Assembly: GCA_963665235.2 (NCBI GenBank)
Contig: CAXXLX010000001.1
Span: 2,752,001-2,816,000, forward strand
Direction of reading: 5' to 3'
DNA from: Candidatus Poribacteria bacterium
GTDB lineage: Bacteria; Poribacteria; WGA-4E; WGA-3G
DNA length: 64,000 nucleotides
Numbering within the stretch: the first letter of the stretch is position 1; every line of letters begins with the position of its first letter. Below, piece by piece: positions 37,740 through 50,657 of the stretch. A program made the position numbers and the translations under genes. The notes beneath the pieces are model-generated. The model ran no database searches. It was not told the DNA's origin and worked only from the letters and a program-made list of their open reading frames with translations.

Positions 37740-38375
37740 TCATATAAGAATTTTCTTGTAGACAAAATCCAGCCATCTGTTTTGCGGGGGTATAATTTGC
37801 GGTTTCGGTGAAAGTGGAGTCCAATACGGCTGAAAAATATGCCCCAGATCACTTTTCAATTCCCATATATCTTCCGTTTTCTCTTGTGTGGACATAAGGA
37901 AAAAGTGTCTTTTTTTCTGTGCGCTAAGGTTTTCGTTCGGCACCCACCCCGTAATCTTATAGTCAATGCAGGTGGGATTAAAGTGTTTGTCGTATTCGTA
38001 TTCAGTATATGAAATATGTGTAAAATCTTCTTGTGTAGCACGGTAATCGACGGTAAGTCCCCTGGTTAATTTCCGTTTGTAGGGGATTGCGTTTAAGTCC
38101 GGGTTGATATAAACTTGAGTCGTCTCGGTGATAATTCTTTGGCGTTCACTCAATTCGTTTTCAATACAACCCAGATATTTTTCAATTTTTACGTTCTGTA
38201 ATCCGGTTTCTTCGGCTGTTTCTCGCTGGACGGCTGTTTCGATATCTTCATCCGCTTCAACGGAGCCCGCTGGGATTTGGATGCCTGCGGTGGGGTGTTT
38301 AAAGACGAGCAACATCTTGATACCGTTTCTTTCCTGTGTGATAAAGGCGGAAACCTTTTCAATGGGGTTGTTCAC
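37740..38375 (-). CDS. NUDIX hydrolase
   Basis: Nudix box 'GSVEADEDIETAVQRETAEETGL'. Probable GTG start overlapping the hsdR 3' end (the start is uncertain). Confidence 0.85.
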   Translation of the reverse strand: MNNPIEKVSAFITQERNGIKMLLVFKHPTAGIQIPAGSVEADEDIETAVQRETAEETGLQNVKIEKYLGCIENELSERQRIITETTQVYINPDLNAIPYKRKLTRGLTVDYRATQEDFTHISYTEYEYDKHFNPTCIDYKITGWVPNENLSAQKKRHFFLMSTQEKTEDIWELKSDLGHIFQPYWTPLSPKPQIIPPQNRWLDFVYKKILI

Positions 38376-41300
38376 TATAAACGCTTCTCTCTTCACCATA
38401 GTAAGAATCATAGATATGCTGATAAACTGACTCAGATTTTTGATGGAACAGCTCTCGCGTGTAGCATTCGGGCAGGTCTTCACCAAGTATATTGTCAACG
38501 ACAAGTCTGACTTGTGCGCGTGTTTGTGTCTGTTTACGCCAATCCAAAACCAGCTTCTCTCGCTTGAGCGTCTCAAGCAATTTCCTCACAGTAGTTTTTA
38601 CCTCGTCTCTTTCAGGAACAGTGAGTTGGGGCTCGGGTTGTGTCAACAGATCGAACACCGCCAATTCCTCTTCAGAAAAGTTTTCAGCCTTGGCGCGTTG
38701 GTATTCCTGCTGAAGTTCGCCAGCGAAGTTGAAAAGCCCCTCAACGTAATTATCAATACTAAGAGTGCCTGCGTTGTATTCCGCAATCATCTGCTCAAAT
38801 TTCGTCTGATAATCCATCCGACTTCTGTTGAGGCGAATCATCGCGGCGAGTTCGCTGTTGAGCGCACCTCTGAGCCGTTCCGCCTCAACGCGTTTGTATT
38901 CCGTATTGAATTGTTCGCTTAACTGGTCAAAATCAATTTGGCTTAAATCTATCGGCCCTGTATCGTAGGCATCCGGCGGTACTTGAATGAGATAGGCTTC
39001 AGATGCAATGGACCGGTCGAGTAGGTCCTCTACTTGTGTCATCACCCCGGAGATGTCAGCGGGTGGCGTTAAATTCCTTATTTTCTGTGCGATAATATTG
39101 ATTAGTTGGCAAATTCTGGTAAACGCATACACATCGGGGTCGGGTAGAATCGCTCTGTAGAGTTTCGTGACGTTCGTTGCAAATTGCAGATAACGTTTTT
39201 TGGTTTCATCGTTAATCAGGATGCGTTCCATTAACTGGTTGATGTGACTGACCTTTTGCCAAGTGTCATCCGTTTGGGTTTCTGTCAAGTCAACACCGAG
39301 GCCTTCACAGAATGCGGTGATTTCGATGATTGCCTCTCTAAGTTTTTCAACCAATTCCGACTTATCTGCAATCGGTTTCTTGCCCTCCACATCGGGCCCA
39401 GTTGCATAAATCGCTAACGCCTTTTCAAGATTACGGAAGACCCCGATGTAGTCAACAATCAAACCGTTGTTTTTATCACCGAAGACGCGGTTGGCTCTGG
39501 CGATAGTTTGCATCAAGGTATGGTTTCGCTGCGGTTTGTCCAGATAGATTGTAGAACAGGATGGCACGTCAAAACCTGTAATCCACATTGCACAAAGGAA
39601 AACAATACGGAACGGAGCATCAGGGTCTTTAAATTTGGTCTCTAAATCCTCCGTGTTCATACGCCTGCGGTGCGGCGTGATGTCCACACCCTTTTGACTG
39701 AGGTCATCGATTTCATTTTGTCCCGGAGAAACTACAACCGCCATATCGGTCTCTTCCATGTAATGAATCCTTTCCTCTAAAAAGCCTCGCTTGCTACCGG
39801 TCTGTGTGGTTCGTTCCGATTTTAGACGTTCGGTCTCCCGTTTCCAATGTTTCTGTACCTTATCGTACATCTTGACAGCAGTCGCTTTGTCAATTGAGAT
39901 GACCATCGCTTTCCCCTGATACCCTCTGCCCATAAAGTGCTTAACGATATCTTCGGCGATGGTTTCCAATCGTTCATCACGTGTGATCAGATGATATTCT
40001 CTGGCAAACTCGTGTTCGAGCTTAGCCTCTTGTGCTTCGTCCAGCTCGGCATCTTCAAGAATCTGTTCCATGTCCTCGTTGAAGTTTTCATTTGTCAGTT
40101 GTAAGGCAGGCACACGGTTTTCATAATAGAGCGGGACAGTTGCACCGTCGAGGATAGATTGTTTAAAGTCATAAACGCTTACATAGTCCCCGAACACCGA
40201 TTTTGTTTTTTCTTCACCTGCTATAAGCGGCGTGCCGGTAAATGCAATGAACGCGGCATTGGGGAGCGCGGTACGCATATTCAACGCCAATGTATCGTAT
40301 TGACTGCGGTGCGCCTCATCGGTGATGACGACGATGTCTGACCGCTCCGAGAGAACGGGGTGCCGCTCGCCATCTCGCGTCTGGAACTTGTGAATCAGCG
40401 TAAAGATATAGCGATGGTCTTCACTGAGGAGTTGGCGAAGATGGCGGACACTTTCCGCATGAACTTCTTGCTGCATCAGGACACCACTTGCACTCGCGAA
40501 GGTCTTATAGATTTGATTGTCCAACTCCTTCCGATCGGTTACGACAACGAATGTCCAGTTTCCCGGTAGTTTTCTAAGCACCTTCTGTGCAAAGAGGAGC
40601 ATAGAGATACTTTTCCCGCTGCCCTGTGTATGCCAAAACACACCAAGTTTGCCTCGGTTATCTTCAATCTCCTTTAGCGATTGGATTGTGTTGTTGACAC
40701 CGAGGTATTGATGATTTTTGGCGAGAATTTTGACGGAGCCCCCTTGTGCTTCCATAAACAGGATAAAGTTCTCAACAACATCAAGTAATCTTTGGTGTTC
40801 ACAAAGTACCTGCAGCATCGTTGCCAAAGAGGCTTCGGGGGTTTCATCTTCACGATGCCTCCGCTTCCATTCAGCAAAGTGTTCCCAACTTGCTGTGAGG
40901 CTACCAACCTTACTGTCTGTGCCATTAGATAGGATAATGAAGCCGTTGTACCAGAAAAGGTGAGGGATTGTGTCTTTGTAGTCGCGGAGGTTGCCGTTAT
41001 AAGCCGCGTAGAGGTTCACGTCAATCCGTTTGAATTCCATCAGGACAAGTGGAAGCCCGTTGACGAAACAGACGAGGTCCGGACGTTTGGTATACATGTC
41101 ACCGGTAATCGAGAATTGCGATGCTGCGAAGAAATCATTATTCTCCGGCTGTTCCCAGTCTATAACCTGAAGGACTTCAACGGATTCAGCTTCAGCATTG
41201 GGCTCGGTTATAACCACCGTCACACCATCTTTCAGAAGACTATAAATCTCGCGATTGGCTTCAACAAGACTCATAGATTTGCGGGAGCGGGTGAGCTCTT

Positions 41301-41523
41301 CAATCGCAGCAGCGATGGCCTCCTGCGTCGCTTCAGGATTGAGCCGTTCCAATGCGGACTGAAGTCTGGCGGTTAGCACAACTTCGGATTTGGTTTCCCT
41401 ACCGACCGGACTTTCATCGCCGTGACTGAATTCGCTATAGCAGTTTCGCGTCTCCCACCCCATTTCTGCTAGCAGTGCAATTGCGGGTTGTTCTATGAGT
41501 TCATCTTCGCTGTATGCGTTCAT
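38359..41523 (-). CDS. hsdR: Type I restriction enzyme subunit R
   Basis: 'RPDLV.FVNGLPLV.MEFK', 'WHTQGSGKS', 'DEAHRSQY', 'FTGTP', 'TGFDVP', 'QTIARANR' and a DUF3387-like C-terminus. Confidence 0.97.
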   Translation of the reverse strand: MNAYSEDELIEQPAIALLAEMGWETRNCYSEFSHGDESPVGRETKSEVVLTARLQSALERLNPEATQEAIAAAIEELTRSRKSMSLVEANREIYSLLKDGVTVVITEPNAEAESVEVLQVIDWEQPENNDFFAASQFSITGDMYTKRPDLVCFVNGLPLVLMEFKRIDVNLYAAYNGNLRDYKDTIPHLFWYNGFIILSNGTDSKVGSLTASWEHFAEWKRRHREDETPEASLATMLQVLCEHQRLLDVVENFILFMEAQGGSVKILAKNHQYLGVNNTIQSLKEIEDNRGKLGVFWHTQGSGKSISMLLFAQKVLRKLPGNWTFVVVTDRKELDNQIYKTFASASGVLMQQEVHAESVRHLRQLLSEDHRYIFTLIHKFQTRDGERHPVLSERSDIVVITDEAHRSQYDTLALNMRTALPNAAFIAFTGTPLIAGEEKTKSVFGDYVSVYDFKQSILDGATVPLYYENRVPALQLTNENFNEDMEQILEDAELDEAQEAKLEHEFAREYHLITRDERLETIAEDIVKHFMGRGYQGKAMVISIDKATAVKMYDKVQKHWKRETERLKSERTTQTGSKRGFLEERIHYMEETDMAVVVSPGQNEIDDLSQKGVDITPHRRRMNTEDLETKFKDPDAPFRIVFLCAMWITGFDVPSCSTIYLDKPQRNHTLMQTIARANRVFGDKNNGLIVDYIGVFRNLEKALAIYATGPDVEGKKPIADKSELVEKLREAIIEITAFCEGLGVDLTETQTDDTWQKVSHINQLMERILINDETKKRYLQFATNVTKLYRAILPDPDVYAFTRICQLINIIAQKIRNLTPPADISGVMTQVEDLLDRSIASEAYLIQVPPDAYDTGPIDLSQIDFDQLSEQFNTEYKRVEAERLRGALNSELAAMIRLNRSRMDYQTKFEQMIAEYNAGTLSIDNYVEGLFNFAGELQQEYQRAKAENFSEEELAVFDLLTQPEPQLTVPERDEVKTTVRKLLETLKREKLVLDWRKQTQTRAQVRLVVDNILGEDLPECYTRELFHQKSESVYQHIYDSYYGEERSVYSEQPH

Positions 41524-41664: not shown

Positions 41665-42207
41665 TCAGGCGCGTTCACGCCTCACCTCTGCAAGTGCTTC
41701 CTCAAAATCACGTATTACCTCTTCCTCTGGCGTATCAGCAAACTTAGCGTGGAAATAGGCAAGGGTTTTATCCCACTCCTCCCGAAACTTTTTGCGCTCA
41801 CTCTCAACTTCGGTGCGGAAGCGCGAAACGATGTTCTGCCACTGCGTTGGTGTACCAGATTCGCCTTTCTGAATATCGGGTGCGAAAAACACCTTGTCAG
41901 ACAAATTACAATCTTTGACGATTCGTTTAACCTCACTAACAATAGGTTTTGACACATCCTGTCGTTGCTGATCGGAATCAACGATAAAAATAATATAGCT
42001 ATCTTGCTTGAGATAATGCCCAATTGCCTTCCTTAGGCTGCTGCTTATAAGTGTGCCTTTTCTATGGCACTTGCGAAGTGTACTTCTTCCGGCTGTTCGG
42101 ATACCGATATCCCCAACCTGTCTCAATCTGATAAATTCATTTTCCAAAAACTTGACTGCTTTGGCATCACAATCCGATAGTAAATTCCAAACTCGGACGC
42201 TTAGCAT
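41665..42207 (-). CDS. TOPRIM-like (DUF4276-like) hypothetical protein with helical acidic tail, paralogue 2
   Basis: GGAGGAG RBS before ATG 42207. 'YIIFIVDSD'. Aligns by eye with 42228-42776. Confidence 0.6.
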   Translation of the reverse strand: MLSVRVWNLLSDCDAKAVKFLENEFIRLRQVGDIGIRTAGRSTLRKCHRKGTLISSSLRKAIGHYLKQDSYIIFIVDSDQQRQDVSKPIVSEVKRIVKDCNLSDKVFFAPDIQKGESGTPTQWQNIVSRFRTEVESERKKFREEWDKTLAYFHAKFADTPEEEVIRDFEEALAEVRRERA

Positions 42208-42227
42208 ACTGGCTCCTCCGTAAACAA

Positions 42228-42776
42228 CTACCGGGTGCATTCACGATCCTCGTGGATGAGATCGTCAACAAAATTTTCACGCTCGGTTTCAGTCATCGTG
42301 TCCCAATCTAAACCGCGCGAGGCACATAATTGTCGAAACCGCGTTTCGGCGTAAACCATACGTTTTGCTCGAGCGGGCTCTTCAATTCCCAGATGCACTT
42401 GCCACAACCGCGCTTCAAGTTCCGGAACCCCCAGCGCGAAAAACACTTTGCCCGCAAAGCTGGGGTCCGCAACAATCTGTTTAATCTGTTTAACAAGTGC
42501 TCCCGACTTTTGTAGTTGAGTCCCGTTCGGCACAGACTCTTGACTGTTAGCTATGAAAATAACGTAGTCATCTTGCTTGAGGTAATGCCGTACTGCCTTT
42601 TTCAGGTTGCCATTCAAAGATTCGACGCTCACATTAGGCATCGGGAACGCTTTGCTGCCAGCTGTTTGAATAGACAGATTACCGAGTTTCAAGTCTGTCG
42701 CTAAACGATTTCCCAAAGATTTAAGAACTTTAGCATCGTAATTAGATTCCACAGTCCAAATTCTTATGTTTGTCAT
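42228..42776 (-). CDS. TOPRIM-like (DUF4276-like) hypothetical protein with helical acidic tail, paralogue 1
   Basis: 'IWTVESNYDAK', 'GVPELEARL'. ATGA overlap with the upstream ATPase. Confidence 0.6.
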   Translation of the reverse strand: MTNIRIWTVESNYDAKVLKSLGNRLATDLKLGNLSIQTAGSKAFPMPNVSVESLNGNLKKAVRHYLKQDDYVIFIANSQESVPNGTQLQKSGALVKQIKQIVADPSFAGKVFFALGVPELEARLWQVHLGIEEPARAKRMVYAETRFRQLCASRGLDWDTMTETERENFVDDLIHEDRECTR

Positions 42777-43945
42777 CCTGGTTCCTCCATTAAATCTTGT
42801 AGAAGTTCACTATGGAAAATGGCACTGCCGATTCCGAAATCCGCTATCCACCCCTCAAGTGCCTCACGTTTCTTACGGATATCCTCAAGGTTGAGGACTT
42901 CGGTGCCAAGTCCGGGGCGGTTGCGTAGAAGTAGAACGCCAAGCCAATCGGATAAATGCTCGGAGCTGAAGGTGTCAAGGAGTTGGGAACTATGCGTTGT
43001 AATTATCACCTGCGTTCGTTCCGCAAGACGCTCAAGTATGTACGCAATATCCTTCAGTGCCCCAGGGTGTAAACTTCGCTCCGGTTCCTCAATGGCAATC
43101 AGTGGCGGTAATTCAGATTGATTGAGTAAGGTGTTATATGCAAGAAGACGCGCTGTTCCATCAGAAGCAGCAAGTAAAGGTATTGGCTCCTTGTATCCTT
43201 CCAGAAGGCAGAGTTGGGATTCGCCATCAATTTTACGATAGTCTATATTGATATTCGTGGCAGCGGCTAAGGCTGCACTAACAGATCGGAAATCCTCTGG
43301 CGAATTCTCATACCACTCTCCGAGGATGGCCGGTACCCCTCCCCCATAACGATTAAGTTTTGGCAATTCAGGGATATTTTTTATACCAGAAAAAGTTCTA
43401 TCAGAATTAGTTCGTATGTAGCTTGGTTCAAAGTCATAAAATTCCCATCCTTGAATAAACTCTGTTAGCGCGCTCGTAACGGGTTTATGTCCATAATCAC
43501 CGGCAGATCTCAAAGCGAGTTTATTGGATGTGTATCTCGTTTCATTCTTACCATCTTCATCCTGAACTTGTCCTTCTCCATCCTGAATTGAGATGACTTT
43601 GACACTGTTAACCAATAATTCTTCGCCAACAGAAAGATCTTCATCTTTAGCTTTGAACACCAATGTATATTGCGCTAATTTCTCCTTCACTTTGGCGTGT
43701 AGTTCGTAGGTGATGTGGTCGGCTCCACCTGCCCAAAGGCGATCTCTGAGAAAATTCGCATGTGTAGGAGGGGTTTCAACACTCAGGATCCCTTTGAAAA
43801 GGTGTAATGTGTTCAAAGTATTTGATTTCCCACTTGCATTAGGACCAACAAGAATCGTCAGAGGCCTCAGGGGAAGCGTAATATTCCGCAAGCTCATATA
43901 GTTTTTGATATGAACTTTCTCTAAGAAGGATTTCACTTCAGACAT
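42773..43945 (-). CDS. ABC-type AAA_21 ATPase
   Basis: 'LVGPNASGKSN', 'ASDGT', 'IAIEEPERSLHP', 'ITTHS'. Confidence 0.9.
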   Translation of the reverse strand: MSEVKSFLEKVHIKNYMSLRNITLPLRPLTILVGPNASGKSNTLNTLHLFKGILSVETPPTHANFLRDRLWAGGADHITYELHAKVKEKLAQYTLVFKAKDEDLSVGEELLVNSVKVISIQDGEGQVQDEDGKNETRYTSNKLALRSAGDYGHKPVTSALTEFIQGWEFYDFEPSYIRTNSDRTFSGIKNIPELPKLNRYGGGVPAILGEWYENSPEDFRSVSAALAAATNINIDYRKIDGESQLCLLEGYKEPIPLLAASDGTARLLAYNTLLNQSELPPLIAIEEPERSLHPGALKDIAYILERLAERTQVIITTHSSQLLDTFSSEHLSDWLGVLLLRNRPGLGTEVLNLEDIRKKREALEGWIADFGIGSAIFHSELLQDLMEEPG

Positions 43946-44034
43946 AATTGTTTCCCTCTACTTAATCAATGTTAAATCGTAAACACCAATTATTTTAACA
44001 TAACACCGGTTTTTATGCAAAAGAAAATTCAAGG

Positions 44035-44120
44035 TTATTGAACACTAACGCTTGATTGTATGTAGTCAATGTCAAGTTCGGACACGTCAATCTCACCAGA
44101 GATGAGTTGGGGCGGAGAAG
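44035..44120 (-). pseudogene. hsdS: Duplicated hsdS 3' end remnant (PQLISGEIDVSELDIDYIQSSVSVQ*)
   Basis: 44066-44120 closely matches 44744-44796 within hsdS. Confidence 0.8.
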
Positions 44121-44135
44121 GGCACTAATAGGGTA

Positions 44136-44501
44136 CTAATTTGGTATAGGTCTCTGTCGGATGTCATCTTCATCGTGAACAACAAAGAGGTGTCCTGTCC
44201 AATCTGCTCGACTTTCAACTGCGTTGATTATGATTTGTGCTACCTCCGAAGGTAAACGGTTATCACGTCGGACACGAAACAGAATAACGCCGAAAGGGGC
44301 TTTTAACTTGTCGCGAAAGACTAAATCACCGAAGTCCTTGTCGTATGTGAGGAGAATTCGTCCTTCGGCTGTGGCACGAGAAAGCACCATTTGGTCATCA
44401 ATCCCAGGCGTTTCTTCCTCTATCCACACGAGGTCATGACCACGCGAACGAAGCATTCCTACTTCTAATCTGTTGAAGTTTTCATCTGCTAACAGACGCA
44501 C
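44136..44501 (-). CDS. DUF5615 family PIN-like protein (putative toxin)
   Basis: 'MRLLADEN', 'GHD', 'GIDD..VL..A..EGRILLT.DKDFGDL', 'GVILFR'. Confidence 0.9.
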   Translation of the reverse strand: MRLLADENFNRLEVGMLRSRGHDLVWIEEETPGIDDQMVLSRATAEGRILLTYDKDFGDLVFRDKLKAPFGVILFRVRRDNRLPSEVAQIIINAVESRADWTGHLFVVHDEDDIRQRPIPN

Positions 44502-45909
44502 GTGTCACCTTTTCTTGATACGTGCGACACGCCTCAATGTCCTCACGTGCAACGTTTGGGTAATTTTCAATAACTTCTTCCTCACTCCACCCCTGTTTCA
44601 GCAAGTCAAGGATAAACGCAACAGCTAAACGGGTCCCTTTGATAACAGGTTTGCCACCGAGTATCTTTTCGTCAGCATGTAAACGCTCTGTGAGCGGGTA
44701 TGGAATGTGTGTCCCGCCTTTTATGGGCTGCATTCCATCCACGTTAATGTCAAGTTCAGATACGTCAATCTCCCCAGAGATGAGTTGCGGGAGAAGTAGG
44801 TCTCGGGTTTGGCGGAGGTTTTGATTTCTTTGTTTAAGACTTTCCGTTTTTTGAAATATGCCAGTGGTGAAATCAGAGAATCGTTCACTTGTTTCAGAGT
44901 CAGCAACTGCAACTACTTTATTGTTAAGTTCTGTCCAGTACCGCTTGTATTCTCTTGTTTCAACAAGATTAAAAATTAAAAAAAATAAATATCCGACCGG
45001 CGTTTTATCTTTGGCGATAAAAGGGACTACGTTGGGGCCAAGAGAGAAAGGAGCAACCATTAATTGCATCTTACAAGTATGATCCCCAAAAATCACAATT
45101 GGGTCTTTTGGAGACGCATTGTGATCTGGTTCATTATCATGAAAACCTAAAAAGTCTGCACGAGACTGGTCAACCACAATAATCTTACCTGTTTGATCAA
45201 CATCAATCTCTCTATATGTTTTACCTGCTTTTAGACGTTTAACTATCTCTTTTACCTCCTTTACCTCCCATCCCTCTGGTATCGGTCCCAACGGTGATTC
45301 TACCATCGAGACATTCTCATGCCCCGGAAATCGGAAGTGGACGAACCATTCTCGGTAGAGGGTTTGTGCCATATCCTCAAGGATTTTGATGCGGCGGGTG
45401 TTGTTTGCAATCAGGTTGTCGTAAGCAGAGAGGACAGCGGCGATTTTGCGTTGGGTTTGAAGAGGAGGCACACACACCTCAAGGTTTGCAAACGTCGACT
45501 TTTTTACTATCGGAACTGCAACACCGGCAGCGATATTTTTCAGAACCGCTGTTTTGGTGCTAAGAAGGTAATAGACAAAGTATGGATCGTGCTTTCGTTG
45601 ATCCACTACAACGCTGTTGATTTGCTGATTTGTTACGCTGGGAACGGTTGTCATGCAAATTTTACCGATACTTGCAATGCAGACGACACAAACAGCATTA
45701 CAAGGAAGCAAGCGATTCTTATTGTATTCATATCCTTTCTGTGATAGAAATCGTTTGGTATGAACAAGGCGAGAATCTATTTCTATATCAGTTGGAGTGA
45801 TAAAAGGATACTTATTGCCGTAATACTCTGTTTTTTTAGTGGGCGGCGTAGACCCTGTGATTATTTGTCCCAAGTCATTGATAGTTACATTCCGCCATGT
45901 ATTCATCAT
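44482..45909 (-). CDS. hsdS: Type I RM specificity subunit S fused to a C-terminal DUF433 antitoxin domain
   Basis: Two TRDs with conserved regions 'PPLQTQRKIAAVLSAYD.LI..N.RRI..LE' and 'TRDLLLPQLISGEIDV', followed in-frame by 'ILGGKPVIKGTRLAV..ILDLL..GWS.EEV..NYP...EDI.AC'. Confidence 0.9.
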   Translation of the reverse strand: MMNTWRNVTINDLGQIITGSTPPTKKTEYYGNKYPFITPTDIEIDSRLVHTKRFLSQKGYEYNKNRLLPCNAVCVVCIASIGKICMTTVPSVTNQQINSVVVDQRKHDPYFVYYLLSTKTAVLKNIAAGVAVPIVKKSTFANLEVCVPPLQTQRKIAAVLSAYDNLIANNTRRIKILEDMAQTLYREWFVHFRFPGHENVSMVESPLGPIPEGWEVKEVKEIVKRLKAGKTYREIDVDQTGKIIVVDQSRADFLGFHDNEPDHNASPKDPIVIFGDHTCKMQLMVAPFSLGPNVVPFIAKDKTPVGYLFFLIFNLVETREYKRYWTELNNKVVAVADSETSERFSDFTTGIFQKTESLKQRNQNLRQTRDLLLPQLISGEIDVSELDINVDGMQPIKGGTHIPYPLTERLHADEKILGGKPVIKGTRLAVAFILDLLKQGWSEEEVIENYPNVAREDIEACRTYQEKVTRASVSR

Positions 45910-45936
45910 ATTGCCTTCTCTAAGTTTTCTCCAAAA

Positions 45937-46989
45937 TCATGGGTTATTAACTTCTATCATATTTAGGTTATGCTCTGCAAAGAATTTTTTGAGATCGTCA
46001 GTGTATTCGGAAATTGGATCTTGATCGACTATGCGAAACAATTCGCGACCAACCCGGGAAAGTGCTACCCCTGACACCCTAAACTCAGGTTTATTATCCC
46101 AATCTGGCGAGGGAAATAAAGCCCAGAACTTGCCTTGGTGTTGAAAAGGCGAAGGAATTGGATTGTCTTCATATACTATGCACGAGTTGTAGTCATACAG
46201 AGAGCACAATTTGTAGTCAGGCAGAGGAATGTCCCCCGAAAAAATTAGATTGTATTCGTTTAATATATTAAGTTGATCGAGGCCTAATCCATATTTGCTG
46301 AGAGCATTAGATCCAAGACTGCTCCCTAAAGGCAGAACTCTAGCATCAATAACGAGTTCGCTGTTTGGAATTCTGAAAGGCCCAATGACTACACATACTG
46401 AACAGAATCTTTTGAACAAAGCAGCAGTATTTTGATCGAGCTCACCGAGAAGGTTTACAGCCTTAATTGAATACGAGCCCGGTTGCCTAATTTCGCCTGC
46501 CAAGATACGACCGAAACGAAGCTGCATCTCTTCAGTGCTTTTTTTCCGCGCTTCTGTATCGAAACTGTTAAGCCAATCGTCGTCGATTACCCTTTCCTCA
46601 CGACTATCTGTCCCCTGATTTGGCGAATCAGTAGATTGCCCTTCATTAGGGGCACTTGCACCTTGATTTGTTAAACTATCAGGTTCCCCGTTTTTAAGCT
46701 CATTTGCAGCAATAGCGGAAATTTTATCAAGATTGAGCTGCTCCCGAATTATTTTTTCTGCGAATTTGTGGCCTGCTCTCAACGCATATTCCGGGTCAAC
46801 TTGTATCTGTTGAACAATTTGGGCGGTAATCTCTTCCCTAATTTTAATGCGGGCTTCCGATTCTGCTCGTTTTTCGGCGGATCTCCGTTCAAGAGCTCCA
46901 ACTGGTACATCAATTAAAGCGGAGCAAAGTCGGTCGAAAGCCTTAAATGCGTTTCGCCTGATTGGGGCAGGGATAGTTGAATCTAACAC
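45937..46989 (-). CDS. DUF2806 domain-containing protein
   Basis: 'REQLNLDKI', 'IDDDWLN.F...A...STEEMQ..FGRILAGEI.QPGSYS'. The 5' end may be frameshifted (see findings). Confidence 0.8.
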   Translation of the reverse strand: MLDSTIPAPIRRNAFKAFDRLCSALIDVPVGALERRSAEKRAESEARIKIREEITAQIVQQIQVDPEYALRAGHKFAEKIIREQLNLDKISAIAANELKNGEPDSLTNQGASAPNEGQSTDSPNQGTDSREERVIDDDWLNSFDTEARKKSTEEMQLRFGRILAGEIRQPGSYSIKAVNLLGELDQNTAALFKRFCSVCVVIGPFRIPNSELVIDARVLPLGSSLGSNALSKYGLGLDQLNILNEYNLIFSGDIPLPDYKLCSLYDYNSCIVYEDNPIPSPFQHQGKFWALFPSPDWDNKPEFRVSGVALSRVGRELFRIVDQDPISEYTDDLKKFFAEHNLNMIEVNNP

Positions 46990-47097: not shown

Positions 47098-47301
47098 CTA
47101 TTTTGTTATAGATATGTTAATACATTTAACTTGCTCATCCTCAATTGGTGTCAAGTTGTGACGTAATTTAAGACTGACCTGAATTTCCACTTCTTCGGTT
47201 TCGTCCCAATAATCGGCGAGGTCATGCGTGTCCCAAAATTCGCCGATCTCCTCTGGTGTTGCATCGGGAGGCGGCATTGGGTCTCGTTTTTTGTTTTTCA
47301 T
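47098..47301 (-). CDS. CopG/BrnA-like antitoxin N-terminal protein (orphan, possibly truncated)
   Basis: 'EEIGEFWDTHDLADYWDETEEVEI' pattern. No adjacent toxin gene. Confidence 0.6.
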   Translation of the reverse strand: MKNKKRDPMPPPDATPEEIGEFWDTHDLADYWDETEEVEIQVSLKLRHNLTPIEDEQVKCINISITK

Positions 47302-47464: not shown

Positions 47465-47722
47465 CTATGTATCCAACCCTTGTAAGAAGGTTTCGAAGTT
47501 AGGTGTTTTCATAGCAGTGCGCAGGAGTTGCTGTAGGCGTTCCATGTCGTGAATAGTTTGTAGTCGCTGTTTTGCGGCCTCGGTGTCACTATTCGGAAAT
47601 CGCTCTGTGAGTAGCAGCAGGATATTTTCGATGGTGTTCTCGCGCGCACCTTGTTCGATACCTTGTTCGATACCTTGTTCGAAGCCTCGTTCAAGTAGTT
47701 CTTCAGCCATTGTTCGTGCCAT
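47465..47722 (-). CDS. Stand-alone copy of the Rpn C-terminal small protein (RpnS-like)
   Basis: Nearly identical to 47766-48059, with its own GGAGGAGGT RBS and 3 rather than 6 EQG repeats. Confidence 0.75.
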   Translation of the reverse strand: MARTMAEELLERGFEQGIEQGIEQGARENTIENILLLLTERFPNSDTEAAKQRLQTIHDMERLQQLLRTAMKTPNFETFLQGLDT

Positions 47723-47765
47723 GGGGTCTACCTCCTCCACTCGGATTACCGATAGTCTTGTCTAT

Positions 47766-48881
47766 CTATGTATCCAACCCTTGTAAGAAGGTTTCGAAGT
47801 TAGGTGTTTTCATAGCAGTGCGCAGGAGTTGCTGTAGGCGTTCCATGTCGTAAATAGTTTGTAGTCGCTGTTTTGCGGCCTCGGTGTCACTATTCGGAAA
47901 TCGCTCTGTGAGTAGCAGCAGGATATTTTCGATGGTGTTCTCGCGCGCACCTTGTTCGATACCTTGTTCGATACCTTGTTCGATACCTTGTTCGATACCT
48001 TGTTCGATACCTTGTTCGAAGCCTCGTTCAAGTAGTTCTTCAGCCATTGTTCGTGCCATGGGGTCTACCTCCACATTGTTTGTATGTCTGTCTACTAACC
48101 TTATCAATTCTTCGTGTTCCTCTGGGGAGCGGCGATGCAGGATAAGATCAAGGATATAACCGATTGCCTCACGCTTCTGTGCTGACTGTGCCTCAGGCAG
48201 TGCACCAAAGTGAATTAACGCCTCGATGAGAGCGTCGCGTATTTCCGCAGAGTCCGCTTTCTCTTTCTGTAGCACTGTGAGAATCCATCCTAACGGATGC
48301 GCTGTCTTTGTGAGGGTTGCCGCCTCTGTTTCTTTGACGCTGAGAAACAACGTGTCAAATTGTGGAACGAAACGTTCAAGCTCTTTGGGAAGGTCCATGA
48401 TAGCTTGTAGTGTCAGCGGGGTGTTCCATCGCCGGTCGCCTGTATAAAAGACTATCGGCAGAATTGGAGACAATCGCTGTTTATTTTTGGGAACATTGTC
48501 CGTTTTCCATCCTCTGCGTTGTTGGTCCCATATCAGCATCATGTAAAGCAGGAGGCGAAATCCCATCTCATCATCCACTGTCGATTGATGTTCAAGTAGG
48601 ATATAGATGAGTAGTTCGTCCGAATGCTCCTCTGTTTTAAAAGGTGCACGGAACAGCACGTCCGCTTCCCGTTCCTGTAGGATTTCAGAAATCAAATCAG
48701 GGTTGAGCGGGACGAGTTTGTTAAAATCTATAAGTTGCGCGAGGTCGTTAGCGATGATTTCTATCAGCCCGCGTATATTTTCCTTGTTTTGAAACAGGTG
48801 TCGGATACTCCTGTCAGGAAAGCGTCCGAGCTGTCTATTAAGAAAATCGCGGACCTTCTTCTCTTTTGTTTCTACTGTCAT
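47766..48881 (-). CDS. Rpn family recombination-promoting nuclease/putative transposase (PD-(D/E)XK, YhgA-like)
   Basis: 'EREADVLF', 'IYILLEHQS..D..M.FRLL.Y', 'PILPIVFYTG...W', then 'MAEELLERG.EQG' repeats. Confidence 0.9.
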   Translation of the reverse strand: MTVETKEKKVRDFLNRQLGRFPDRSIRHLFQNKENIRGLIEIIANDLAQLIDFNKLVPLNPDLISEILQEREADVLFRAPFKTEEHSDELLIYILLEHQSTVDDEMGFRLLLYMMLIWDQQRRGWKTDNVPKNKQRLSPILPIVFYTGDRRWNTPLTLQAIMDLPKELERFVPQFDTLFLSVKETEAATLTKTAHPLGWILTVLQKEKADSAEIRDALIEALIHFGALPEAQSAQKREAIGYILDLILHRRSPEEHEELIRLVDRHTNNVEVDPMARTMAEELLERGFEQGIEQGIEQGIEQGIEQGIEQGARENTIENILLLLTERFPNSDTEAAKQRLQTIYDMERLQQLLRTAMKTPNFETFLQGLDT

Positions 48882-49059: not shown

Positions 49060-50628
49060 TTATACCCTATTTTCCAAAATCTTTGCAACATTCTCTGCAA
49101 TCCGCTCCTCTAACTGACGTGCCTCAGCGTTCAGATTCTCCAATTCTTCATTGAGTTTTCCGAATTGTTCTGTGAAGTCAAAATCGTCCGCGGTTTGCGT
49201 AGCGACACCGACATAACGTCCAGGGTTTAGGCTCCAACCTTGTGCTTCAATATCGGCAACGGCCGCCATTTTGCAAAGCCCGGGAACATCAATATATTCT
49301 GCATCGGGGAACTTTGTAGCGAGAAAATCCGAGCTGTCGTGTCGGTTTTCAGGAGATTCAGCTCGGTAGAGCCTAACAATATTGGCGAGGAATTCCAGCT
49401 GAAGCGGGGTGAATTGCCGATGCGCTCGGCTCACTTGTTGATAAAGGTGTCGGGCATCAATGAACAACACTTTATCGGCTCTTTCCGTATCCCGTTTAGC
49501 TTTGTCGAAAAACCAGAGGGTACACGGTAAAGTAACAGTATAGAAGAAATTTGAGGCTATGCTAACAATAACATCCACCGCGCCGGTCTCAATAAGCTGC
49601 TTACGAATTTGTAGTTCAGAGGCGCGTGCATCCGCAGCAGAGTTCGCCATGACAAACCCCGCGCGACCTGTCTCCAAAAGCGAACTATAAAAGAGTTGTA
49701 TCCAGAGGTAATTGGCGTTATCTACGCGAGGCATGCCGAACGGAAATCGCGGGTCATCTTTGAGCCGTTCCCTATCTACACGGTCCACATTGAAGGGTGG
49801 ATTTGCCATGACAAAGTCGAACCTCCCTAGACAGTTATGCGGGTCTTCGTAGTAGCTATTCGCCTGCTTTATATCCCCCTCCAGACCGTGTACCGCGAGG
49901 TTCATTTTACATAATCTGATAGTCTCCGCGACGCGTTCCACGCCGTAGATGCTAATGTTGTCACCCTGTTTTCCGTTTTGCTGGTGGTTACGAATGAATT
50001 CTGCACTTTGGACAAACATGCCGCCAGAGCCGCATGCAGGGTCAAGGATACGTCCATGAAAGGGTTGTAGAATTTCAACGATCAGTTTAACGAGTGAGGT
50101 TGGCGTGAAAAACTCACCCCCCCGTTGTCCTTCACTCATAGCAAAGTTGCCGAGGAAGTACTCATAGACCTTTCCGAAGGCATCCCCTTCAATATCCATC
50201 GGAATCTGTTGCATGATGCGGAGGAGTTCAAAGAGGGTACGTTTTTCGAGTTGATTGTAATTTTTGGGCAGCACCCCTTGAACCTGACTGTTTTCAGCTT
50301 CGATTGCGCGCATTGCGGCAGTGATAGCTTGCCCAATGTTCGCACTTTCCGGCAAATTGAGGAGATGCTGAAATCGCGCTTCCTCTGGTAGGTAAAAGAT
50401 ACCGCGTGCTTGGTATTGTATCTTTTTATCTGTTCGCCGTCGCGTGTTAGGGGACGATTCGCGTTCAAATTCGCGTTCCGCCTCTGTAAATTTATGGTCG
50501 GCGTATTTCAAGAAGATGAGCCCGAGTACCGGTGTTGAGTACTCCGATGCTTTAAGCTTTGAATTAGCTCTGAGTTCATCAGCAGCGTGCCACAGTTTGT
50601 TTTCTATGTCGGTTAGGTTTGTGTTCAT
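49060..50628 (-). CDS. hsdM: Type I RM DNA methyltransferase subunit M
   Basis: '[11 protein letters not shown]', 'LGLIFLKY', 'GEFFTP', '[10 protein letters not shown]', 'MANPPFN', 'WSLNPGRYV'. Confidence 0.97.
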
Positions 50629-50657
50629 AATGTTCACTAAATTAGGAGGCAAAAGGA

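Follow-up and report, generated by a model that had tools for sequence, protein, structure and literature searches.

A type I restriction specificity subunit fused in frame to a DUF433 antitoxin domain in Candidatus Poribacteria

Introduction

What does it mean for a type I restriction–modification (RM) enzyme when the gene for its specificity subunit, HsdS, runs on without a stop codon into an antitoxin domain? The question is raised by a locus in a 64 000-nucleotide stretch from a Candidatus Poribacteria bacterium (GenBank assembly GCA_963665235.2, contig CAXXLX010000001.1, positions 2 752 001–2 816 000 of the forward strand), which is referred to here as the window and in which all positions are counted from its first nucleotide. 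At this locus HsdS is continued by a DUF433 domain, and the end of the fused gene overlaps the start of a gene for a predicted DUF5615 PIN toxin. Type I RM systems and type II toxin–antitoxin (TA) systems are textbook systems that occur side by side in defense islands. To our knowledge, RM and TA systems are known to interact only via separate proteins, with PrrC and PARIS as guardians. An earlier sequence-only reading of the window had proposed that the tethered antitoxin turns the PIN protein into a guard of the RM complex. We find that the gene fusion is genuine, old and selectively maintained, and that the toxin is probably silenced only while the HsdS subunit is produced.

Organization of the fusion gene

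The HsdS::DUF433 open reading frame (ORF) was delimited from the ORF list and Pfam at 44482..45909 on the minus strand, which carries all genes of the region in the order hsdM, hsdS, hsdR, and encodes 475 residues from an ATG start to a TGA stop at 44482–44484. The frame is free of stops across the join, where ...LLLPQLISGEIDVSELDI passes into NVDGMQPIKGGTHIPYPLTERLHADEKILGGKPVIKGTR..., and the continuation of HsdS into DUF433 as a single in-frame ORF, first noticed in the sequence-only reading, is conserved in relatives.

The HsdS body (residues 1–388; 44746..45909, minus strand) consists of a first target-recognition domain (TRD1), a central conserved helix, TRD2 and a C-terminal conserved helix (CR2) that ends in SELDI. 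Pfam assigns a single Methylase_S (PF01420) stretch to the 475-residue ORF (residues 3–177, E = 1.6e-31), so that of the domains anticipated for a profile search DUF433 and DUF5615 were found as named but the expected second Methylase_S match was not. The second TRD and both helices were nevertheless recovered by the PADLOC Specificity_I profile, which spans residues 2–385 of the fusion protein (profile positions 1–399 of 403), and by an AlphaFold2 (AF2) model with a mean predicted local distance difference test score (pLDDT) of 71, in which TRD1, a helix at 150–190, TRD2 and a helix at 338–378 follow one another; the subunit is thus a complete two-TRD HsdS, as had been claimed. With two TRDs, two conserved helical regions and both hsdM and hsdR at the same locus, the protein departs from a normal HsdS only in running 87 residues beyond SELDI, whereas plain Poribacteria HsdS proteins stop 3–12 residues beyond this motif in six of the seven genes read and 24 residues beyond it in the seventh (L148).

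The linker (residues 389–412; 44674..44745, minus strand) contains Met393 (ATG at 44731–44733) and a relic Shine–Dalgarno (SD)-like sequence, AAAGGCGGG (44713–44722). In the AF2 model the C-terminus has pLDDT below 50 at residues 391–428, followed by a small helical domain, and about 35 residues between HsdS and DUF433 are disordered by this measure. The DUF433 domain (COG2442, a VapB-like antitoxin; residues 413–464; 44518..44673, minus strand) matches Pfam PF04255 with E = 1.6e-21 and 76.3 bits against a cut-off of 23.6, and also matches PDB entry 2ga1 (E = 2.2e-4). Antitoxins of this kind are expected to be free, small and labile proteins, but here the DUF433 unit is the C-terminal domain of a 475-residue protein. 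A search of the ESM Atlas (best score 0.80) gave no informative cluster and was not used.

The junction

Could the join be an assembly or sequencing artefact, in which a lost base conceals the hsdS stop and the genes are truly separate? The source genome is a metagenome-assembled genome (MAG) and related loci with separate genes are known. The out-of-frame TAA (44721–44723) and the ribosome-binding-site-like AAAGGCGGG, which had led the sequence-only reading to raise this suspicion, are both present and align with the stop and SD spacer of unfused relatives. Logan contigs from four runs were aligned to 43950–46000; runs X1, X2 and X3 belong to one study, possibly including the source sample, and X5 to another. 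Contigs from X1 (44596–45036), X2 (44596–44835) and X3 (44628–44835) span the junction and show 0 differences and 0 gaps, and the divergent X5 contig over 44493–44820 has 25 substitutions and 0 gaps; no insertions or deletions at 44482–44800 were listed in the aligned contigs of the four runs. The 16 fused loci found in species genomes are all colinear, with no indels at the junction among them, and the fusion recurs in 80 protein clusters. An indel artefact is refuted for the fused clade by these observations, and we consider it extremely improbable. Relatives with separate genes, which had been named as grounds for rejecting the fusion, do exist but form a distinct sister arrangement and do not refute it. 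Contig joints from 44165 to 44481 (X1 and X2; side 25) and from 44054 to 44472 (X5; side 46) were anchored too weakly for use; they may stem from PIN-less relatives in the same samples.

In the unfused relatives the SD sequence AAAAGGAG aligns with AAAAGG(C/T/A)GG of the fused loci, which identifies AAAGGCGGG as a relic that is now translated. The fused antitoxin has no conserved separate start. Across the 80 fusion proteins, the Met393 column contains M in 32, I in 30, V in 9, T in 5, L in 2 and a gap in 2, and the window DNA holds no in-frame ATG, GTG or TTG between the relic SD and the DUF433 core. Internal initiation at Met393 or past the relic SD was considered and judged unlikely, owing to the lack of conservation of Met393 and of any later in-frame start, a judgement that is weaker where M (32 of 80 proteins) or V (9) occupies the position.

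Distribution and conservation of the fusion

A protein search with residues 385–475 as query, against targets of 261–832 residues clustered at 90% identity, returned 80 clusters from 117 candidates, the window's own included. Both PF01420 and PF04255 are carried by 78 of these 80 fusion clusters. The other 79 clusters are 67–89% identical to the window's fusion over linker and DUF433; for 26 of these the whole-protein identity is 37–67%. The TRD2 ends are visibly different. The constancy of CR2, linker and DUF433 beside differing TRDs indicates that the module has persisted through changes of specificity.

Among named GTDB species genomes, the fusion occurs only in Candidatus Poribacteria MAGs, with a full-length match in 16 of the 176 Poribacteria species genomes, distributed over three GTDB families and six genera. 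The bacteria that carry it are uncultured symbionts of sponges. The fused frame is open over 472–556 residues in 15 of these 16, and the remaining one (322 residues) is cut by the start of its contig. Where flanks are available at the 15 other fused loci, hsdM lies upstream in 13 (75–84% identical) and hsdR downstream in 14 (65–82%). At L121 (G149) and L128 (G021) the hsdR match is in pieces, covering residues 1–328 in the former and two overlapping segments in the latter; the restriction subunit may be disrupted there while fusion and PIN are intact. The search for independent fusions suggested by the sequence-only reading had a divided outcome, with the same fusion in 79 further clusters but none with HsdS outside the phylum, and the fusions of the main family forming one clade. 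No HsdS–DUF433 fusion in other phyla was found among the 8000 candidates sharing most words with the query; as only these were scored, absence elsewhere is weak evidence. Among viral contigs, 19 pattern matches were obtained and no relative was confirmed.

Non-synonymous and synonymous differences (pN/pS) are 0.083/0.479 in CR2, 0.204/0.725 in the former spacer (NVDGMQPIKGG), 0.153/0.756 in the DUF433 N-terminal arm and 0.144/0.579 in the DUF433 core. As judged from these values, the fused frame is under purifying selection and synonymous sites are near saturation.

The PIN gene and its predicted complex with DUF433

The predicted DUF5615 PIN toxin gene (44136..44501, minus strand) encodes 121 residues from a GTG start after AAGGTG and matches Pfam PF18480 over residues 1–110 (E = 2.2e-23, 82.7 bits, cut-off 23.8). 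Its start lies within the 3' end of the fusion with an overlap of 20 nt, in agreement with the sequence-only description, so that, as in VapBC-like systems, antitoxin coding sequence lies directly upstream of the toxin gene and overlaps it. The position of the PIN start inside the last codons of the fusion implies translational coupling. Counted in the 16 species genomes only, 12 of the fused loci have an intact PIN ORF. In 11 of them the PIN start overlaps the stop of the fusion, whereas in L131 it comes 3 nt later, and in all 12 the start is a GTG or ATG behind an SD-like AAGG or AAAG.

Residues Asp6, Glu7, Asp36 and Asp54 of PIN are invariant in 12 orthologues. The DUF5615 match is the sole one, with no PADLOC or NCBIfam match for PIN, and the AF2 model of PIN alone has a mean pLDDT of 57.8 with 12 aligned rows, which leaves the fold unconfirmed. 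Among solved structures none matched PIN, DUF433 matched 2ga1 only, and no like complex was found.

A complex of fusion residues 385–475 with PIN, predicted from alignments of 26 and 12 rows, respectively, gave interface scores (ipSAE) of 0.47, 0.73 and 0.74 (median 0.73), compared with 0.00 for the best of three controls. When the tool was calibrated, 58 of 80 solved complexes and 2 of 110 mismatched pairs attained the 0.73 mark; these counts apply only roughly here because custom alignments were used. Contact agreement between runs was at least 98% and partner pLDDT at least 85. The predicted interface is formed by PIN residues 6–8, 32–37 and 53–54, which contain the conserved acidic cluster, and by fusion residues 413–452, and on the DUF433 side it coincides with the conserved face of the domain. 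The model supports binding of PIN by the fused DUF433 over the putative acidic active site.

Unfused relatives and other DUF433 fusions

We examined 34 other DUF433 loci of the phylum. In 11 of them DUF433 is adjacent to hsdS and unfused, with the hsdS CR2 in a different frame from the DUF433 core and 160–169 nt upstream of it. Here hsdS ends in ...SELDIDTD-stop (L113 and L144–L148, with ...SELDID-stop in L144) or, in the g8 loci (L134, L135, L137 and L138), continues in frame for about 15 more codons before the stop. The stop is followed by a spacer of about 28 nt with AAGGAG (AAGGAA in L147), an ATG and MQPEPLQQWTDRIV..., and alignment of the fused and unfused junctions shows that they differ by TGA to GGA plus a net 13 nt. 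PIN is present in six of the 11, three of which have a CR2 remnant after it. The other 23 of the 34 loci are free-standing, with no CR2 directly upstream of DUF433; in the first set examined (L105–L118, n = 14) this applies to 13, ten of them with PIN. The free-standing relatives are 55–62% identical to the window in DUF433 and 52–57% in PIN.

Several fusions of other kinds were encountered. A second junction type (...DLDIATDLHRSQEGEK joined to PMQSAPAPIW..., or ...SQEGEK joined to PMQSAPAPIW...) is represented by P0091 and P0092, two clusters with different TRDs known as proteins only; it was found in none of the 176 species genomes and looks like the unfused g8 type with its two frames merged. 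P0128 (1131 residues, source label Chloroflexi; a single cluster) is an N6_Mtase/Eco57I-like RM enzyme ending in DUF433, by its domain content an independent link of DUF433 to a DNA methyltransferase in another phylum.

Evolutionary history

A tree of the TA pair (DUF433 plus PIN; 29 rows, no outgroup) places the 12 fused pairs in one clade (support 100/99), the inner branching of which tracks family and genus. Two other clades are formed by the unfused-adjacent pairs with three free ones and by the free g6 pairs. Branching in a tree of hsdR (21 rows) likewise tracks genus, and several sister pairs in it join loci of different state (plain L014 with fused L122; L044 with L119; L011 with L132; unfused L144 with fused L133). 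The tail of the plain L014 gene, DIDPDSKSN, matches the remnant tail DIDTAPKSN at fused L120. Our reading of the two trees is that the fusion would have had one ancient origin and been inherited at an orthologous locus, from which it would have been deleted repeatedly, and elsewhere replaced by other alleles. From its canonical stop, SD and ATG layout we infer that the unfused form is ancestral, as firmly as an unrooted three-way split allows and with the reservation that some plain hsdS tails (L148, L020 and L141) resemble the fused linker.

The duplicated hsdS tail

On either side of the DUF433–PIN cassette lies a copy of the hsdS tail, a feature absent from the sequence-only reading. The coding copy, CR2 (44743..44790, minus strand; PQLISGEIDVSELDI), and the non-coding copy, CR2' (44035..44120, minus strand; PQLISGEIDVSELDIDYIQSSVSVQ plus TAA), both belong to repeat family D1, and share a 48-nt direct repeat (44065–44112 and 44743–44790; 90% identical, spacing 678 nt). 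CR2' begins 15 nt (44121–44135) beyond the PIN stop and continues ...SELDIDYIQSSVSVQ-stop to its end at 44035. Plain Poribacteria hsdS genes have ends similar to the tail of CR2', and this copy looks like the displaced native 3' end of hsdS.

Nine of the 16 fused loci, one with a weak match (E = 0.021), have a CR2 remnant between –19 and +28 nt from the PIN end; in one further fused locus the distance is 876 nt, and in the PIN-less L123 the remnant comes straight after the fusion stop. Copies within a genome are 86–100% identical over 42 nt (nine loci), compared with a mean of about 83% against the remnants of other genomes, and changes specific to a lineage are common to both copies (K to Q in the window and E to Q in L129; in L131 the copies are identical), which means that exchange of sequence between the repeats is continuing. 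This concerted evolution of the tail copies within genomes (the window and L119–L131) implies ongoing gene conversion. Recombination between the copies would most simply delete the cassette and restore a normal hsdS, and bracketing by copies that still exchange sequence accounts for the cassette being so often lost as well as for the clean way in which a normal hsdS is regained. The locus thus offers a concrete route for cassette traffic, in which modules are bracketed by conserved hsdS tail copies.

Two further arrangements were observed. The order at L148 (G051) is hsdS, AAA_21 module, CR2 fragment, DUF433, PIN, hsdR, so that the TA cassette, separated from hsdS, has a CR2 fragment of its own; there the main hsdS gene ends in ...DIDTDGIQVRVKGAPNPVSIDRAVAH, which resembles a decayed fused linker. 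It seems that recombination at CR2 copies shuffles the modules. On contig C95 of G040 the fused, PIN-bearing L133 and the unfused L153 (no PIN, with a CR2 remnant) lie about 57 kb apart.

Comparison with known systems

That DUF433 and PIN form a recognized TA pairing, as the sequence-only reading held, is borne out by the 97 PIN–COG2442 pairs counted by Makarova et al. (2009; PMC2701414) and by the validation of one pair, VapBC10 of Synechocystis, for which toxicity, neutralization and ClpXP degradation of the COG2442 antitoxin are reported (PMC3834315). In VapBC10 and the PIN–COG2442 pairs, as here, the DUF433/COG2442 antitoxin gene comes first and the PIN gene overlaps it or is adjacent. Binding was shown for VapBC10 whereas it is predicted here, and the likeness is one of antitoxin family and gene order; moreover, the VapBC10 antitoxin is free with its own start, whereas here it is the C-terminal domain of a 475-residue RM subunit. 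The covered part of Makarova et al. (2009; PMC2701414) mentions COG2442 fusions to winged helix–turn–helix (wHTH) domains only. In these (Rv2018 beside the PIN gene Rv2019) a fused antitoxin is likewise paired with a PIN protein, but the partner is the TA system's own small DNA-binding domain and not a subunit of a different defense enzyme.

PrrC, which stays latent together with EcoprrI until a T4 inhibitor activates it (PMC1484252), is described together with PARIS as an RM guardian (PMC12707154), and the sequence-only reading rightly cited it as a precedent for toxin silencing by a type I RM complex. Like PrrC/EcoprrI, the fused locus has a gene for a putative RNA-targeting toxin in a type I hsd operon, in this case between hsdS and hsdR, that would be silenced via RM proteins, and in the PrrC model loss or inhibition of the RM system frees the toxin (PMC1484252; PMC12707154). 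PrrC combines ABC-ATPase and anticodon-nuclease domains, which are absent here, and binds the RM enzyme directly, whereas the present toxin is a 121-residue DUF5615 PIN protein with an inhibitor covalently fused to HsdS.

Green fluorescent protein (GFP) fused to the HsdS C-terminus left M.EcoKI activity unaltered (PMC2914225), and this construct and natural or engineered HsdM–HsdS fusions (PMC2914225; PMC3510504) indicate that HsdS termini tolerate added domains; they are laboratory constructs or fusions between RM subunits and contain no antitoxin. Among RM-embedded modules (PADLOC HEC candidates and MADS), the same operon holds an AAA_21 module resembling HEC-01A and MADS3, but such modules are separate genes, and an HsdS fusion of them is undescribed in the literature covered. 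Full-text literature searches, with supplementary files outside their scope, found no description of an HsdS–DUF433 or other HsdS–antitoxin fusion, in keeping with the earlier impression that the architecture is undescribed, and a product name for the fusion was found in none of the 14 member records read (7 clusters, 6 in NCBI/ENA), one of which shows a status line only. The locus is not categorically new and belongs with type II TA systems and RM-embedded toxins; what it adds is a natural, long-maintained covalent link between an RM subunit and an antitoxin.

Possible role of the tethered antitoxin

What is said here beyond the anatomy of the locus is inference. We lean towards the view that the antitoxin is tethered to HsdS and that silencing of PIN is coupled to hsdS expression. 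With the hsdS stop and the ribosome-binding spacer of the antitoxin gone, the antitoxin is made only as the C-terminal domain of HsdS, and its supply would equal hsdS translation. The tethered DUF433 would cover the PIN active site and neutralize PIN while on HsdS, giving one silenced PIN per HsdS and hence on every M2S and R2M2S complex. If HsdS were lost, silenced, truncated or degraded, PIN would be unneutralized and growth would be arrested, and as a minimal consequence the TA module would police the expression and retention of hsdS, as an addiction or stabilization device. Something more than an accident is favored by the size and age of the family, by selection acting on what was once the spacer, by the keeping of DUF433 without PIN and by the existence of P0128. 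If the tether matters, it provides a simple testable model for toxin silencing that depends on one defense protein, and it would explain how a non-addictive type I system gains addiction.

Several observations weigh against this view. The fusion is confined to 16 species genomes out of 176, and all genomes used are MAGs. Fused, unfused and plain states are intermingled on the hsdR tree, with at least six changes of the fused label, no fewer than with shuffled labels; the cassette has thus often been lost or swapped, which argues against strong addiction. PIN is missing in three of the 16 fused loci (L123, L124 and L132) and split by a frameshift in another (L122), with DUF433 intact in all of these, so that the domain is not retained for a PIN in cis alone. 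In L123 the loss of PIN must be very recent, since its DUF433 is identical at every codon to that of the PIN-bearing L121. Purifying selection on the frame may reflect no more than a ratchet: for an antitoxin without a start of its own, breakage of the frame would be lethal, and this could keep the frame. The linker is long and floppy, and of the 42 long DUF433 proteins among the 8000 candidates scored, 37 are fused to unrelated partners, mostly as singletons, both of which speak against a special role.

How much of this could be explained without any benefit to the RM system? A small mutation may have fused an adjacent TA cassette to hsdS, leaving an antitoxin that now depends on the hsdS start and that works as a free antitoxin, perhaps after cleavage of the linker. 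The unfused arrangement is frequent, at 11 of 34 loci, and differs from the fused one by TGA to GGA and a net 13 nt only, P0091 and P0092 differ from the g8 type by an apparent one-base merging of frames, so that such fusions arise easily, and the prevalence of unrelated DUF433 partners (37 of 42) and the frequent loss of the cassette fit as well. An accident of this kind is harder to reconcile with 80 clusters and 16 species genomes in which the fusion survives TRD exchange and synonymous saturation, with purifying selection on the former spacer itself (pN 0.20, pS 0.73) and with intact DUF433 in PIN-less lineages, where a ratchet does not apply; we judge it unlikely, if a serious contender. 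The latter lineages would suit a role of DUF433 on HsdS that is independent of PIN, such as DNA binding or autoregulation, a degradation tag or an antidote to PIN paralogues elsewhere. DUF433 is in frame in the three PIN-less fused loci and stands separately beside hsdS in five PIN-less unfused ones, other DUF433 genes and the DUF433–PIN pair L004 are present in the genome, the Chloroflexi protein P0128 also ends in DUF433, and VapB10 binds its own promoter and is degraded by ClpXP (PMC3834315). PIN is nevertheless intact in 12 of the 16 fused loci, with starts that overlap the fusion stop or lie 3 nt off and an SD-like motif in every case, the conserved face of DUF433 takes part in the predicted interface, and no DNA target or degron has been identified, which makes such a role quite improbable.

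The guard proposed in the sequence-only reading goes further than the coupling that we favor. By analogy with PrrC, PIN would sense the integrity of the type I enzyme, and phage anti-restriction factors or the destruction of HsdS would free PIN, with abortive infection as the outcome. Like prrC, the PIN gene is located within a type I hsd operon, the tether would, as modelled, put PIN on every HsdS, the locus is a defense island with a further HEC-01A-like ATPase module, and the fusion has long been kept across three families. There is, however, no trigger in evidence, four of 16 loci lack PIN or have a broken one and loss of the whole cassette is frequent, the long disordered linker gives a DNA mimic in the HsdS/HsdM groove no obvious means to free PIN, and with no relative on viral contigs there is no known counter-defense context; the proposal seems to us distinctly doubtful. 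The same degree of doubt attaches to the tether as a hard-wired guardian, in which removal, degradation or halted synthesis of HsdS would free the RNase and shut the cell down, taken jointly with its candidate triggers, namely phage anti-restriction, protease attack from the C-terminal antitoxin or loss of the locus. Were the guardian reading true, the problem solved by PrrC would have been solved a second time, by an independent mechanism.

Genomic context

The operon is completed by hsdM (49060..50652, minus strand; Pfam N6_Mtase, E = 1.3e-82, and HsdM_N) and hsdR (38359..41523, minus strand; Pfam HSDR_N, SWI2_SNF2 and T1RH-like_C; NCBIfam hsdR, E = 3.6e-154). A scan of 43800–46200 for promoters and terminators gave no signal, with five promoter-like sites (4.8 expected) and one terminator-like site (1.9 expected). 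An ATPase module is embedded between CR2' and hsdR (41665..43945, minus strand). It consists of an AAA_21 ATPase gene (42773..43945, minus strand; Pfam AAA_21/AAA_15; PADLOC HEC-01A, E = 5e-41; NCBIfam MADS3-like, below cut-off) and two paralogous small ORFs (42228..42776 and 41665..42240, minus strand; 182 and 191 residues, about 34% identical), the products of which matched nothing in Pfam, PADLOC or NCBIfam. Only some of the related loci contain the module, and in loci without it a 40–50-codon fragment of a small gene often remains before hsdR; the gap between hsdS and hsdR acts as a landing site for accessory modules.

Between hsdM and hsdS lie an Rpn/YhgA-like gene (Transposase_31, 371 residues; 47766..48881, minus strand) that carries a GIEQ repeat run, a 91-residue ORF (47465..47740, minus strand), a 67-residue CopG-like ORF with no obvious toxin partner (47098..47301, minus strand) and a DUF2806 gene of 350 residues (45937..46989, minus strand). 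The 91-residue ORF is 87% identical to the last ~100 residues of the Rpn/YhgA-like protein and may be a stand-alone copy of its C-terminal part; work on Rpn proteins with intragenic antitoxins is listed among the references of PMC12707154. The DUF2806 gene and the CopG-like ORF recur between hsdM and hsdS in several related loci. Elsewhere in the source genome there are several further DUF433 genes and at least one other DUF433–PIN pair (L004).

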